Source: Candidatus Weimeria bifida (GTDB lineage: Bacteria; Bacillota; Clostridia; Lachnospirales; Lachnospiraceae). From it: DNA of 64,000 bases. The first letter of the stretch is position 1; each line of letters begins with the position of its first letter. The DNA is taken from positions 57,010 through 121,009 of the forward strand of contig VOGC01000009.1 of assembly GCA_009493715.1 (NCBI GenBank), given 5' to 3'. Both the position numbers and the translations under genes were made by a program. Positions 2,553 to 45,960 of this stretch are shown piece after piece. A model generated the notes under the pieces. The model was not told the DNA's origin. It saw nothing but the letters and a program-made list of their open reading frames with translations, and did no database searches.

Positions 2553-2644
2553 ATGAATTGGTGGTCAAAAGGTTGACCACCGATTCATATGATTACATTC
2601 GAAAAAAATACGCTCCCGCCTTTCACAGGTGGGAGCGTATTTTT
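2553..2644. terminator. Two consecutive hairpins forming a bidirectional terminator between convergent mreB and HAD genes
   Basis: atgaatTggtggtcaa-aagg-ttgaccaccGattcat, then A-tract tacgctccc...gggagcgta T-tract. Confidence 0.75.
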
Positions 2645-2667
2645 AATGGTGCGGATAGCACCGCTCA

Positions 2668-3390
2668 TTAATTATTTTCCATAATAGCTTTTCTTAGTTC
2701 TTCAGCATTCGACACTATTTTTTCAACAGGTATCCGCTCAAGGTACTCGTGGCTTCTGAAGCCCCAGTCGACCGAGATCACATGCATGTCTGAATTCTGT
2801 CCGGTCGCAAAGTCGACTTCGGAATCGCCAATATAGACGCAGTCTTCACGCGGGATATTTAAAACGCGAAGGCATTCGTTTACCATGTCCGGAGCGGGCT
2901 TTCTCTTGATGCCCTTCTTCTCGCCGAGAGAAAAATCAAAGGCGCCCGGGAACATGTCTGCTACAAGTGTCTGGACCGCCGTGTCCGGTTTATTTGAAAC
3001 GACTGCGGTTTTGATGCCGGAGCTGTGAAGGTCATCCATCAGTTTGAGAATTCCAGGATAGGGTCCGGTCTTATCGGCGCAGTGCGCATCGTAGTAAGGA
3101 CGGTAAATCTCCGAAATCCTTTCGATCTCATCGTCATCTTTAAAGCAGTCATCTGGCTCCTTATCGGTGCCTATCAGGTCGAGCTTTTCGTATGGGAAGC
3201 CCTGCTCGACTGAGAGAGCGCGCTTCAGCGCTACATAGACTCCGCTTCCAAAAAAATACGCCACATTTTTTTCAGTGAAATCATGCTCGTGACCTGTCTT
3301 TTCGAGCGCATAGTCGATCGAAGCTGTAAGGTCGCCGAGGGTGTTCAGGATCGTTCCATCCATATCAAAAACAGCTGCTTTATATCCCAT
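2668..3390 (-). CDS. HAD-superfamily hydrolase (phosphoglycolate phosphatase-like)
   Basis: Motif I FDMDGT, motif II SNK, KP, motif IV YIGDSEVD. Confidence 0.92.
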   Translation of the reverse strand: MGYKAAVFDMDGTILNTLGDLTASIDYALEKTGHEHDFTEKNVAYFFGSGVYVALKRALSVEQGFPYEKLDLIGTDKEPDDCFKDDDEIERISEIYRPYYDAHCADKTGPYPGILKLMDDLHSSGIKTAVVSNKPDTAVQTLVADMFPGAFDFSLGEKKGIKRKPAPDMVNECLRVLNIPREDCVYIGDSEVDFATGQNSDMHVISVDWGFRSHEYLERIPVEKIVSNAEELRKAIMENN

Positions 3391-15685: not shown

Positions 15686-15722
15686 TTGACATGTCTTAAA
15701 AATAGTAACTAAATAAAGATTC

Positions 15723-15876
15723 TCTTATTCAGAATGGTGGAGGCACATAGGGCCTGTGAAGCCATGGCAACCCCGTAAAGCCGGCAGGTGCCTTCCTGAG
15801 CGAGACGCATAAGCGTGATTCGAACAATAAGGGGATTTGAACCTATTCAAATCCGCCTTCGGGCGGAATTTTTTTT
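15723..15876 (+). ncRNA. SAM-I (S-box) riboswitch with intrinsic terminator
   Basis: P1 CTTATT...AATAAG, conserved AGAATGGTGGAGG, GGCC..TGAAGCC, GGCAACC and GGTGCC; terminator tccgcc-ttcg-ggcgga plus T tract; upstream of metK. Confidence 0.93.
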
Positions 15877-34236: not shown

Positions 34237-34265
34237 TTGACAAATGCATCTGATAGATGTATATT
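34237..34265 (+). promoter_or_regulatory. Sigma-A promoter of rplJL
   Basis: TTGACA-N17-TATATT. Confidence 0.7.
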
Positions 34266-34274
34266 AATAAAGCT

Positions 34275-34384
34275 TGCCATAGACAGCAGGTGCTCCATGG
34301 AGCGCAACGCGTAAGCTACCTGCCGAGGTAATGATTATTCAAGAGATCATTATGAATCCTGTGGCGCGTCCACAGGATTTTTTA
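34275..34384 (+). ncRNA. L10 leader with attenuator
   Basis: AGACAGCAGG...CCTGCCGAGG conserved pairing, then terminator aatcctgtgg-cgcgt-ccacaggatt plus T tract upstream of rplJ. Confidence 0.8.
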
Positions 34385-34424
34385 TTGCAAGCTGCAGTAC
34401 TATACTAACAGGAGGTAAAGTAAA

Positions 34425-35596: not shown

Positions 35597-35622
35597 TCCA
35601 ACCATTATTTCAGACTTTACCG

Positions 35623-35654
35623 GCACGGGTGCATATCGCACCCGTGCTTTTTTT
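35623..35654 (+). terminator. Intrinsic terminator after rplL
   Basis: gcacgggtgc-atatc-gcacccgtgc followed by a T run. Confidence 0.9.
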
Positions 35655-35663
35655 TCGCGTTAC

Positions 35664-36047
35664 AAATGAGCGGTGCTGAAATATCGTATCGATGCCGGCG
35701 GACGCTTGCGTACGCAAAGGCAATCGATACGATATTTCAATAGCGCGAACGCGCGAATGAGCAGCCGCGAAGCGGGTGCGAATTGCACCGCTCATTTGTC
35801 CATAGCGCGAACGCGCGAATGAGCAGCCGCGAAGCGGGTGCGAATTGCACCGCTCATTTGTCCATAGCGCGAACGCGCGAATGAGCATGGAGCGGTTGTT
35901 ATGCTGCCGCGAGCCTGAAGGGTGAAGCGGGAGCATTATAAACCGCCCATGCGATAGCCGTCCGCGATTGGCGAGCCCGAAGGGCGAAGACAGAGCGGAA
36001 ACGGCGAACCGCTGGAGCGAAGCGGGTGCGAACAGCACCGCTCATTT
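35664..36047. repeat. Palindromic repeat element: 15-bp terminal IR, 17-bp internal IR and 2.4 tandem copies of a 62-bp unit
   Basis: TIR AAATGAGCGGTGCTG/CAGCACCGCTCATTT; IR 35677-35693/35723-35739; 62-bp units at 35741-35802 and 35803-35864, partial copy 35865-35887, variant 36017-36047. Confidence 0.9.
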
Positions 36048-36076
36048 ATTAGCTTTCAATTAAAAATAATAAACTC

Positions 36077-36106
36077 TTGACATTTGCTCTTGACTTGTGC
36101 TATAGT
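36077..36106 (+). promoter_or_regulatory. Sigma-A promoter of rpoBC
   Basis: TTGACA-N18-TATAGT with an extended -10 TG. Confidence 0.6.
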
Positions 36107-36210
36107 ATAGCGTGCTTTTACCATGGGCACAGATTACGGGATTTTTGTGCGCATTTTGGCCTGTGGAAGACCGCAGTTTAAGTATATTTTTATCGAAAGG
36201 TGAGCTTTAA

Positions 36211-43908: not shown

Positions 43909-44673
43909 ATGAATGAAAAAGTATCTATTATAACGCCGTGCTACAACGGTGCGAAATATGTTGGGGAGACGATTGAGTCAGTGCTCGCCCAGGACTACAC
44001 GGACTGGGAGATGATAATCGTAAACGACGGCTCATCGGACAACTCCTGCGATATTGTCTCATCCTATGCGGCAAAAGATCCGCGGATTACTCTTATCAAC
44101 CAGCCGAACGGAGGCTCTGCAAAGGCCAGAAATAATGGCATTGAGCATGCGAACGGCCGATACATTGCGCTTCTCGACGCTGATGATCTTTGGAATCCGG
44201 ACTTTTTATCGTCGCAGGTATCATTTTTAAAAGAAAAAAATGCTGCGGTCGTCTGCTCAAGTTACGCTCATATCGACGCAGATTCAAAAGTCTTTGGAAA
44301 AGTGGACGTGGCTAAGCCAGTCATCACATTGAAGGATATGTATGTGATGAACCGGATAGGCTGCCTGACAGGGCTCTACGATGCCGGTACCTACGGTAAG
44401 GTCTATCTGAGAGAGGAATTGAAAAGCCTGAGAGACGACTACGCGTATTGGATAGACTGCGTCAAAAAGACCGGTGTAGCATATGGAAACCAGAAGGTAC
44501 TTGCCCGTTACAGGGTGCTTGACACCTCCACGACAGGCAACAAGAAAAAACTGATAAAGGTGCAGTGGCATTTTTACAGGGACTATCTGCACTTAAATCC
44601 ATTCAGGGCTTCGGCAAACCTCGTGCAGTGGGGGATTGCAGGCCTGAGAAAATTTGGGAATAGCAATGTTTAA
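43909..44673 (+). CDS. Glycosyltransferase family 2 (TuaG-like)
   Basis: SIITPCYNG, VNDGSSD, ARNNG and LLDADD. Confidence 0.92.
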   Translation: MNEKVSIITPCYNGAKYVGETIESVLAQDYTDWEMIIVNDGSSDNSCDIVSSYAAKDPRITLINQPNGGSAKARNNGIEHANGRYIALLDADDLWNPDFLSSQVSFLKEKNAAVVCSSYAHIDADSKVFGKVDVAKPVITLKDMYVMNRIGCLTGLYDAGTYGKVYLREELKSLRDDYAYWIDCVKKTGVAYGNQKVLARYRVLDTSTTGNKKKLIKVQWHFYRDYLHLNPFRASANLVQWGIAGLRKFGNSNV

Positions 44674-45508
44674 ATTATGTGAATTTCAGGAGCTCACTAT
44701 AACCCGTTTCAAGGAGTTCGGAGCTCTTTTAAGAGAAAATATCCACGATGAAAAAAGCGTCCTGCTTCCGCGGAAAGAAATCCCTGAGGGAGCAGAGATT
44801 GGTGAGCGGATCCGGGTTTTTATCTATTTAGACAGCAGGGACCGGCCAATCGCGACAACGGCCAAGCCGCTTATCACTTTAGACCAGGTAAAAGTTCTAA
44901 AAGTAAGCGATGTTACGAAGATCGGTCTTTTCCTCGACTGGGGTCTGCCGAAGGATCTGATGCTGCCGTTCCACGAGATTAATGGCCGCCCGGAAAAGGG
45001 CGATGATGTCCTGGTACGCCTCTACATCGACAAGTCCGGCCGTCCTGCCGCCACGATGCGCCACCTCTACCACTACCTGCGCACCGACAGCCCTTACCAG
45101 AAAGATGACACCGTAAGCGGCCGAATCTACGAGTTTGGTCACGACTTCGGTACATTCGTGGCTGTCGATGATATTTTTTCAGGTATGATACCGAGACATG
45201 AAGATGTTTCTTCTTATAAAATAGGTGACGTCCTCACCCTCCGTGTCACTGAAGTAAAGCCCGACGGCAAGCTCACACTGACCACCCGAAAAGACGCCTA
45301 CCTTGAGCTGGATGACGACGGAGCAAAGATCATGTCTATAATCGATTCGTACGCCGGTGTGCTGCCGTTTACCGAGAAGGCTTCCCCGGAAGTCATCAAG
45401 CGTGAGACAGGACTTTCAAAAGCTGCATTCAAACGCGCCATCGGGCACCTCTACAAGGAGCGTAAGATAACGCTCGAAGGTGGTCGGATCCGCAAAGTGG
45501 GTCAGTAG
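44666..45508 (+). CDS. cvfB: S1 RNA-binding domain protein (CvfB/YitL family)
   Basis: Tandem S1 repeats (GLFLDWGLPKDL) and C-terminal winged helix SKAAFKRAIGHLYKE. Confidence 0.85.
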   Translation: MFKLCEFQELTITRFKEFGALLRENIHDEKSVLLPRKEIPEGAEIGERIRVFIYLDSRDRPIATTAKPLITLDQVKVLKVSDVTKIGLFLDWGLPKDLMLPFHEINGRPEKGDDVLVRLYIDKSGRPAATMRHLYHYLRTDSPYQKDDTVSGRIYEFGHDFGTFVAVDDIFSGMIPRHEDVSSYKIGDVLTLRVTEVKPDGKLTLTTRKDAYLELDDDGAKIMSIIDSYAGVLPFTEKASPEVIKRETGLSKAAFKRAIGHLYKERKITLEGGRIRKVGQ

Positions 45509-45744
45509 GGACGGTTCTTTTTGTCCCATTTTTGAAATTTTCTGACAAATCAAACCGGCGCTGACACGTGATTATAGTTTCAGCAGGTGGCCACCCGGGC
45601 CGCCGCCAGCGCACACGTTTACGACGAAAAATCCTGAGGCCGCCAGCCCGTTTCAATCTGCGGCGCTGCTTCTTGATGCAGAGCCACCTGTGTTATCTCC
45701 GGACCCAGGCGGCAATTTTATGAAAAAAATTATTTGAGTGACAC

Positions 45745-45793: not shown

Positions 45794-45960
45794 ACAGTTT
45801 CTTGCTGTAAAATGACTCTATGGGAGATTACCATGGCCAATAAAAAATAGTTATACTTTGACACATGTATACCCGAATTACACTGCGGCAAGATTTTCTA
45901 AATTGTCAGATAATGGGACAAAAAGAACCGTCCCTGGTGTCCCAGGAAAGGAGAATTTTT

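Follow-up and report, generated by a model that had tools for sequence, protein, structure and literature searches.

Two nested hairpin-forming repeats probably account for a 384-bp block between rplL and rpoB in a Lachnospiraceae genome

What occupies the unusually long gap between rplL and rpoB in this Lachnospiraceae genome, and how did it come to be there? In the 64,000-nt stretch of DNA analysed here (the window, in whose positions all coordinates are given), a palindromic block of 384 bp lies at 35664-36047. The original prediction had placed it between the rplL terminator and the rpoB promoter, as we also find (Table 1), and had read it as a single element made of three-way-junction units. 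The block is instead a composite of two nested elements, an outer element and an inner core that interrupts it. We consider it likely, with a probability of roughly three in four, that these are two non-autonomous, hairpin-forming interspersed repeats inserted between terminator and promoter. They constitute a new family within a known kind, that of the BOX, BIME and Clostridiales-1-like repeats. The part previously called unique is the core, the most abundant repeat of all.

Comparison with relatives identifies the block as an insertion at this locus. The nearest named RplL sequences belong to uncultured Lachnospiraceae and Candidatus Weimeria (88-91% identity). At six loci of relatives whose RplL is 90-91% identical, the rplL-rpoB spacer measures 210-242 nt, compared with 614 nt in the window; in the four closest of them the terminator T-run is followed by the -35 box after about 13 nt, in the other two after somewhat more. 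Promoter and 5' untranslated region (UTR) are conserved between the window and these relatives, and because the excess in spacer length equals the block that the relatives lack, the block was evidently inserted. The sequences flanking the outer element, ...CGCGTTAC on the left and ATTAGC, AATGGC, TTAAAT and GATTTG on the right, show no repeat and no target duplication. In Candidatus Weimeria sp. the gap is occupied by an unrelated palindromic minisatellite of 9-mers, 0.5-1 kb long, and the position is evidently permissive. This minisatellite (L026 1879-2634, L027 1879-3065) consists of 9-mers of the type GGTTAGAGG followed by the complement, ending in CCTCAGACC or CCTCGGACC, and its length differs between samples. 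Downstream of the promoter, the rpoB 5' UTR at 36107-36210 (ATAGCGTGCTTTTACCATGGGCACAG...GTGCGC...GAAAGGTGAGC) is conserved in L022-L029 and may hold a leader structure.

The outer element is assembled from modules that had in part been recognised. An inverted-repeat search recovered the predicted perfect 15-nt terminal repeats, as well as the predicted long hairpin, whose 17-nt perfect arms (TGAAATATCGTATCGAT at 35677-35693, ATCGATACGATATTTCA at 35723-35739) enclose TTGCGTACGCAA and extend to 24 nt at 88% complementarity. Beyond it, a 62-nt unit is repeated in tandem for 2.4 copies at 100% identity (35740-35887), its 41-mer and 24-mer pieces having an expectation of 0.00 in shuffled sequence. 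The exact repeats are thus as described earlier; the count of 2.4 units plus a right-end variant has to be replaced by three units, since the third (35864-35887 and 36013-36047) is split by a 125-nt insert, the core. Units 1 and 2 read GAATGAGCA^GCCGCGAAGCGGG at the corresponding site (^ marks a junction; the site continues as GCCGCG). Unit 3 reads GAATGAGCA^TGGAGCGGTT, enters the 125 nt (start TGGAGCGG) and returns through GAACCGC^TGGAGCGAAGCGGG (TGGAGCG) to the right terminal repeat. Since unit 1 matches unit 2 exactly whereas unit 3 has diverged, the duplication is recent, and replication slippage would be the simplest route to three copies.

A single unit is sufficient to complete the fold of the outer element. 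The stretch 35662-35676 also pairs perfectly with 35785-35799 and 35847-35861, and, being complementary to the end of every unit, it allows one unit to close a four-stem structure. In keeping with this, the minimum-free-energy fold of the one-unit element 35662-35799 consists of a 15-bp closing stem, the long hairpin and two small hairpins under both RNA and DNA parameters (z about -10), and a loose contig end reveals a one-unit version elsewhere in the genome that already bears the core. Folding z-scores lie between -4.7 and -10.8 (for RNA folding of a 401-nt stretch, -10.8 on the + strand and -8.2 on the - strand), and the + strand is 4-9 kcal/mol stabler than the - strand. A second genomic copy of the long hairpin carries three compensatory pair changes, at 35684/35732, 35686/35730 and 35692/35724. 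In contigs of other loci, the window sequence sets in at 35647 or 35650, behind different terminator hairpins.

The nested position of the core is documented by filled and empty sites. Among species-representative genomes, HGM12300, a metagenome-assembled genome of a human-gut Lachnospiraceae, proved to hold three cores; scanning metagenomes added nine loci, carried on long contigs, which very probably belong to the window organism or a close relative because the rplT locus among them is shared with the RNA runs. Across these sequences the core occupies 125 nt at 89-98% identity and sits in four host contexts. The first is a small terminator-like hairpin, whose loop it occupies (GGGACAGTAGGGACGGT^T...CTTTTTGTCCC, that is, GGGACGGT^T..CTTTTTGTCCC); eight empty copies exist, and the filled minus the empty length is exactly 125 nt. 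The second is a palindromic repeat of about 250 nt (GCTAGCGCGCA^...^CGCTCAC, that is, GCGCGCA^..^CGCTCAC), of which three copies are empty. The third is the window-type unit, seen filled in the window and in L014, and the fourth a related repeat in HGM12300, interrupted at a different position. The junctions can be placed to within 1 nt, empty and filled sites differing by 0 or 1 extra T, and comparison of the two reveals no clear target duplication longer than that T. The core ends carry only short GAGCGGTT/AACCGCTC-like sequences. A search for extra insertion flanks at the left boundary of the core gained none, the contigs being too short. Two variants were also seen, through loose contig ends at 35891 and 35927: one with a 62-nt deletion that joins both hairpin tips (..GGGTGAAG^ACAGAGCGG..), and a family member, present in DNA and RNA contigs, in which a different hairpin I (GGCGGTGCCGAGTGAAACGACGGCAGCGCC) precedes 35936-36019.

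Depth data show how often these modules recur. The window organism dominates several anaerobic-digester and bioreactor metagenomes, and we used three DNA runs dominated by this Lachnospiraceae (X1, X3 and X5; flank depth 2.7k-5k). Measured as the summed assembler word depth of short contigs, the core (35940-36014) stands at about 90 times its flanks, the 62-nt unit at about 30-45 times, the left hairpin at about 5-10 times and the extreme right end at about 2-4 times. By this measure the core has about 90 copies, more than any other repeat of the genome. The depth of many contigs that contribute to these sums is close to one or two times the single-copy value, as dispersed copies within one genome would give, and loose contig ends display other flanks. 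[quoted passage not shown] The rplL contig enters the element identically, and breaks within the hairpin, in six metagenome contigs from separate samples; the block accounts for the breaks in short-read assemblies of this organism directly after rplL, and probably for those at about 100 other places too.

The copies favour particular surroundings. Every directly visible copy of the outer family follows a hairpin and T-run: the window copy (behind rplL), that of L014 (behind rplT), two loose-end loci and the remnant at 2644-2670. Similarly, 10 of 12 core copies lie just downstream of a co-oriented gene. An exact-pattern scan for the right end of the unit gave no match in species-representative genomes, and a 22-mer of the core gave none in viral contigs, where the invariant 17-mer of the core yielded three true streptococcal matches and eight chance matches in coding DNA. 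With model R1, against which the core scores 150 bits, neither the window nor the rplL-rpoB loci of relatives yielded any hidden copy of the core. A literature search by sequence strings returned unrelated primer matches only.

Table 1. Features of the block and its surroundings in the 64,000-nt window
Feature	Position	Strand	Remarks
rplL intrinsic terminator	35622-35656	+	Hairpin 35622-35648 plus T-run; the outer element begins directly after it
CGCGTTA left-flank stretch	35657-35663	+	Also found in further copies in the genome; probably where the outer element really begins
Left terminal inverted repeat AAATGAGCGGTGCTG	35664-35678		100% complementary to 36033-36047; also pairs with each unit end
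Long hairpin	35677-35739	+	17-bp perfect arms; apex 35694-35722 including ACGCUUGCGU
Unit 1, 62 nt	35740-35801	+	GCGC-GAAC-GCGC, GAATGAGCA, CCGC-GAA-GCGG, GTGC-GAATT-GCAC, CGCTCATTTGTCC; empty core site
Unit 2, 62 nt	35802-35863	+	Identical to unit 1; empty core site
Unit 3, 5' part	35864-35887	+	Cut after GAATGAGCA by the core insertion
Core, 125 nt, TGGAGCGGTT...GGCGAACCGC	35888-36012	+	Hairpin I 35890-35948; linker CCCATGCGATAGCCGTC 35946-35962; hairpin II 35957-36005
Unit 3, 3' part, diverged variant	36013-36047	+	Holds the right terminal repeat 36033-36047; 93.5% identity to the last 31 nt of the unit
rpoB promoter TTGACA-18-TATAGT	36077-36106	+	Near-consensus; conserved in relatives without the element
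Solo right-end module of the outer family, AATGGTGCGGATAGCACCGCTCATT	2644-2670	+	27 nt, directly after the T-run of another terminator

Transcription of the locus was followed in four metatranscriptomes from the same reactors. The rplL RNA contig ends at 35629/35630 and the rpoB RNA contig begins at 36126-36128; in none of the four runs is 35640-35887 or 36036-36125 covered by window-specific RNA contigs, and no promoter was found within the block. The window copy looks transcriptionally silent, and the earlier suggestion of a structured non-coding RNA (ncRNA) is weak for this copy, as no transcript was detected between terminator and promoter. A core-consensus RNA contig of 119-124 nt (A at 35971, T at 35976) does occur, at a depth of 295-869; since it carries the consensus letters, core copies elsewhere are transcribed, in agreement with their frequent position downstream of genes. 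Adapter letters precede the rpoB RNA contigs, which suggests a defined 5' end about 20 nt past the -10 box.

The core has homologues outside the Lachnospiraceae, and these define its structure. By blastn, one homologue lies in a conjugative record of Streptococcus agalactiae (CP138365, pR31-snf2-M), upstream of mef(A) and about 240 nt downstream of a relaxase-like open reading frame (ORF) in which the motif HTDNDHVHNH was read by eye; others lie on prophage-like elements of S. suis, beside variable cargo and with no adjacent relaxase. The blastn search of the block returned this one streptococcal record only among plasmids, and nothing among phages. The homologues share the invariant 17-nt CCCATGCGATAGCYGTC together with GCGAACCGC, and their stems change in compensatory fashion (GGCGG/CCGCC and GGCAG/CUGCC; UCCGC/GCGGA and UCCGU/ACGGA; GCCGU/ACGGC and GCUGU/ACAGC). 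In the predicted fold of the core, an invariant single-stranded linker connects two irregular hairpins, both of which contain a GA/GAA internal loop and are capped by a G-N-A triloop. In an alignment of 13 sequences this two-hairpin model is 88.9% paired, with 14 pairs altered on both sides; its covariation score is 0.238, as against 0.04-0.09 with partners slid, for a model derived from the same sequences. Both hairpins end in the tip C-GA-GYCC-GNA-GGRC-GAA-G, in direct orientation, with GAA, GTA, GCA, AAA or ATA as triloop.

The homologues also bear on two small hairpins that had been proposed for this part of the block. Both GCCC-GAA-GGGC (35975-35985) and CGG-CGAA-CCG (36002-36011) are present as sequence, but the pairing of the latter finds no support among homologues: S. 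suis has CAG...CCG there, and the bases belong to the base of the longer, covarying hairpin GCCGU/ACGGC. In streptococci the conserved block is longer, about 195 nt, continuing TGAGTGTGTYGCTCT..GTAAAAGCYTAGAAAC..GAACGAAAGGGAT (L019 1735-1930, L020 3500-3700, L031 1390-1600), and an intrinsic terminator follows it in three records. Its flanks differ on both sides, as expected of a discrete module, among genes for an Mrr-type nuclease, DUF4365, a methyltransferase, erm(B) and mef(A). IS200 was considered as a partner of the streptococcal homologue and rejected, the insertion sequence (IS) copies being separate insertions by the pgmA terminator.

Among described families, only Clostridiales-1 (RF01699) in Rfam matches the block, at 27.0 bits (E 0.002) over 35671-35790 on the + strand, compared with a gathering threshold of 48. 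At that threshold the whole window contains no Clostridiales-1 match, and the core matches no Rfam family at permissive thresholds in the window, a streptococcal homologue and four related loci. The block had been called novel-looking; given this sub-threshold match, it does bear some resemblance to a described family. The seed alignment of Clostridiales-1 includes at least 14 copies on the contigs of one genome, with pairing ends and a G-CUUG-C apex. Like the outer element, Clostridiales-1 has four stems, a closing stem formed by its ends, a long first hairpin with the G-CUUG-C apex and two more hairpins, and it is found in many copies per genome in Lachnospiraceae and gut Clostridiales. The sequence ACGCUUGCGU at 35702-35711 aligns to its apex, which in the second genomic copy is a perfect CGGACGC-UU-GCGUCCG. 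Its 3' hairpin GGAUUGYGGGAGUGC...ACAAUCC (GGAUUGYGGGAGUGC..GCACG.A.CAAUCC), however, is absent from the window, its ends UGAUACC/GGUAUCA are not shared by the outer element, and neither a tandem internal unit nor a nested core has been described for it. We treat Clostridiales-1, which was filed as a probable RNA rather than a mobile repeat (PMC2864571), as the closest described relative or analogue and not as the family of the outer element.

The organisation of the block appears most similar to that of BOX (boxA-boxB(n)-boxC) and also resembles the BIME mosaics of REP sequences. BOX elements of the pneumococcus and S. suis are 67-637 bp long, tightly folded and part of repeat families inserted into one another (PMC3049150). 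The likeness is one of modular layout only, with paired terminal inverted repeats and a self-folding internal module in variable tandem number; BOX is reported to make target duplications, none of which is seen here, and the present modules are G+C-rich, have G-N-A loops and reside in a Lachnospiraceae host. The BIME and REP sequences of E. coli and the REPINs, mobilised by RAYT tyrosine (Y1/HUH) transposases (PMC3116915), are likewise extragenic, high-copy hairpins after genes, arranged as module mosaics with differing copy numbers, and the BIME/REPIN (RAYT) systems are presumed to act on folded single-stranded DNA (ssDNA) through an enzyme encoded once elsewhere in the genome. REPs, however, are imperfect palindromes of 20-40 nt with a conserved GTAG head that come in inverted pairs, whereas the modules of the block measure 62-250 nt and GTAG turns up in the family solely among variants of the triloop region at the hairpin tips. 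No RAYT or Y1 transposase was found in the window or related loci. RAYT/REP systems have mostly been described in Proteobacteria.

Other small mobile elements share single traits with the block. The outer element has the terminal inverted repeats of a classical MITE (15 nt) and lacks its fixed-length target duplication. The core resembles the miniature elements of IS200/IS605 (PATEs) in making no target duplication and needing no terminal inverted repeat, in having two like hairpins on the same strand with a conserved unpaired stretch, in inserting into hairpin-rich DNA, and in a structured strand co-oriented with most genes, likely the lagging-strand template; it seems to differ in its insertion site, as no conserved 4-5-nt target is apparent 5' of the insertion in the four contexts (GGT, GCA, GCA and GCT, then T). 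The ERIC/IRU, Neisseria Correia and Bacillus cereus bcr1 elements lie in transcribed intergenic DNA as imperfect palindromes 100-160 nt long; internal insertions give rise to size variants, the RNA-type folding is conserved, and messenger RNA stability is affected. Correia and bcr1 duplicate TA and TTTAT as targets. All three have other sequences and other hosts, and no target duplication accompanies the block.

How might such elements spread? The ends of the outer element (about 35657-36047), AAATGAGCGGTGC and GCACCGCTCATTT, would pair and close the four-stem structure, and folded ssDNA may be copied and inserted into exposed hairpin loops and terminator-proximal DNA. Several features point to ssDNA: target duplications are lacking, two similar, directly oriented hairpins flank an invariant single strand, and the loops are of kinds, G-N-A triloops and tandem G-A mismatches, that are established as unusually stable in DNA. 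Furthermore, 45 of the 52 long ORFs in the window lie on the + strand, so the structured strand, which is the sense strand here, is probably the lagging-strand template. Catalysis would be supplied in trans by a protein encoded elsewhere, which would be likely to recognise the invariant linker. An enzyme of HUH/Y1 type is the leading guess, albeit a doubtful one. The window copy may be tolerated because it lies outside any transcription unit, and copies in 3' UTRs elsewhere may serve as RNA-stabilising or terminator-like structures.

Searches for the mobilising protein were negative in the sequences covered. As predicted, no cognate transposase is encoded in the window: a Pfam scan of 40 window ORFs revealed none, nor did about 100 kb of related loci. 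IS200 transposase had no tblastn match in the window or the Lachnospiraceae loci, an all-against-all comparison of ORFs near core copies returned repeat-derived ORFs and two amylases only, and no full-length IS with matching ends occurs in the 64-kb window or the related loci. The proposed action on ssDNA through an HUH/Y1 enzyme consequently gained no backing, as no such gene is present in the sequences searched and the pair statistics do not separate DNA from RNA. With no transposase or parent element found, mobility is read from the distribution of copies rather than observed. A bolder version, that the core is an undescribed structured module of Lachnospiraceae chromosomes and of streptococcal phage-like and conjugative elements, serving as substrate of an ssDNA enzyme and inserting into hairpin loops or by terminators without target duplication, seems to us unlikely.

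The strongest competitor, which we nevertheless hold to be improbable, is that the block represents one or more genes for a structured ncRNA of the Clostridiales-1 type acting in trans, the copies being gene copies. The match to Clostridiales-1 on the + strand only, the shared four-stem layout with the ACGCUUGCGU apex, the compensatory changes in long hairpin and core, the core consensus in the metatranscriptomes and the same-strand intrinsic terminator about 60 nt downstream of the streptococcal homologues would all fit such a gene. The match, however, scores well under the Rfam threshold; the window copy lies without an internal promoter between a working terminator and a promoter, in a region that yielded no RNA contig; and about 90 near-identical copies, nesting, remnants and a post-terminator position are the marks of a mobile repeat. 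It is far less probable that the core is an ssDNA origin or signal (sso, oriT-like or an ssDNA promoter) that was acquired from conjugative or phage-like elements and subsequently spread through the chromosome. Homologues do reside on streptococcal mobile elements, one of them near a relaxase-like ORF, the purine-rich loops are confined to one strand, and an invariant unpaired stretch between covarying hairpins resembles the build of ssoA-type origins, whose folded strand carries the conserved RSB and CS-6 (PMC4598088). Yet these ssoA signatures are absent: the core shares only TTATGC with RSB TTATGCCGAGAAAATTT and has TAGCCGT or TAGCTGT in place of the CS-6 TAGCGT. There is no blastn similarity to plasmids beyond the single streptococcal record, the S. 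suis copies have no neighbouring relaxase, and some 90 chromosomal copies would be without precedent for an origin.

Two further explanations have hardly any claim left. The position, and the terminator-like hairpins with T-rich tracts behind them in which each unit ends, suggest a cis-regulatory leader or attenuator that would control read-through between rplL and rpoB, like the rplL-rpoB attenuator of E. coli. Such a leader is largely refuted already: the block lies upstream of the rpoB promoter, which relatives without the element conserve along with the 5' UTR; rplL transcripts end at the native terminator, those of rpoB begin at about 36126; and the same modules occur at dozens of unrelated loci. 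Just as remote is an assembly artefact, in which the tandem duplication or the whole block would result from collapsed or mis-joined repeats. All public short-read contigs do break inside the element, so that short reads alone could not resolve its internal order. Against this, the left rplL junction is identical in six samples, the right end is joined to the rpoB flank in contigs that start at 35941-36001, and the tandem junction CATTTGTCC^ATAGCGCG is recovered in contigs of independent runs, among them X2, where 35740-35825 is present without differences. Window-type depth at this junction is about 2.1 times single copy in X3, 2.6 times in X1 and 4.5 times in X5, values from short-read contigs that cannot prove the exact number of units. 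Other candidates were rejected outright: a group IIC intron remnant, considered for the post-terminator position, has neither intron domains nor an Rfam match; a kink-turn does not fit, as the GA/GAA loop departs from the 3-nt-bulge consensus; and there is no reverse transcriptase, cassette or spacer organisation such as would mark a retron, an integron attC site or a CRISPR array.

Several observations weigh against the reading as two nested mobile repeats. The copy numbers derive from summed word depth and not from a finished genome, and many of the apparent copies may be amplified composites rather than independent insertions. No autonomous parent element was found in the window or the related loci. 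The core junctions are fuzzy by one T, and the 5' flanks (..ACGGT, ..GCGCA, ..GAGCA and ..TTGCT, each then followed by T) come from four independent contexts only. A functional RNA would be expected to show the covariation and the G-CUUG-C apex of the long hairpin as well, and RNA of the core family is expected of it equally. The arguments for ssDNA are also compatible with a role at the RNA level, and the counts of G-U and A-C cells, 9 and 10, call neither strand nor RNA versus DNA.

The window contains further pieces of such repeats, which amends the earlier description: besides the solo module, other repeat families are present near 45.5 kb. The solo module lies between convergent mreB-like and HAD-hydrolase genes and abuts the stop codon of the minus-strand gene. 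At 45498-45693, the final codons and TAG stop of an S1/CvfB-like ORF (44654-45508) come from a small terminator-like repeat, GGGTCAGTAGGGACGGTTCTTTTTGTCCC, which is followed by a piece of about 150 nt from the palindromic family of about 250 nt; a second, inverted copy lies just upstream of an oxidoreductase gene (45912-45944). A repeat of the GGGTCAGTAGGGACGGTTCTTTTTGTCCC type also provides a stop codon in L015. The family of about 250 nt, with ends GAAGCAGCGCCGCAGATGG and CCATCTGCGGCGCTGCTTC and no blastn match among plasmids, carries a variable number of tandem units of about 43 nt (GGGCGNCCGNATCTGCRGNGCTGCTTCTTGACTAAT) at its right end (L010 3900-4100, L011 4400-4520 and L018), and is thus a second family with an amplified module. 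Two ordinary, correctly placed structured RNAs are an L10 leader (RF00557, 66 bits) ahead of rplJ at 34259-34392 and a SAM riboswitch (RF00162, 66 bits) ahead of metK at 15722-15833.

For annotation, these results mean that the block should not be read as a regulator of rpoB or as a gene. More broadly, a Lachnospiraceae genome of gut and digester type carries an ecosystem of nested hairpin repeats that home to terminators and to each other's loops, and the comparison suggests that the Clostridiales-1 motif of Rfam belongs with the mobile repeats too. The 125-nt module, with its invariant linker, its empty and filled sites and its streptococcal relatives on mobile elements, offers a handle on the mobilising enzyme in Firmicutes. 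If the bolder version were true, it would represent a new transposition system that targets hairpin loops, or a new class of mobile structured RNA.

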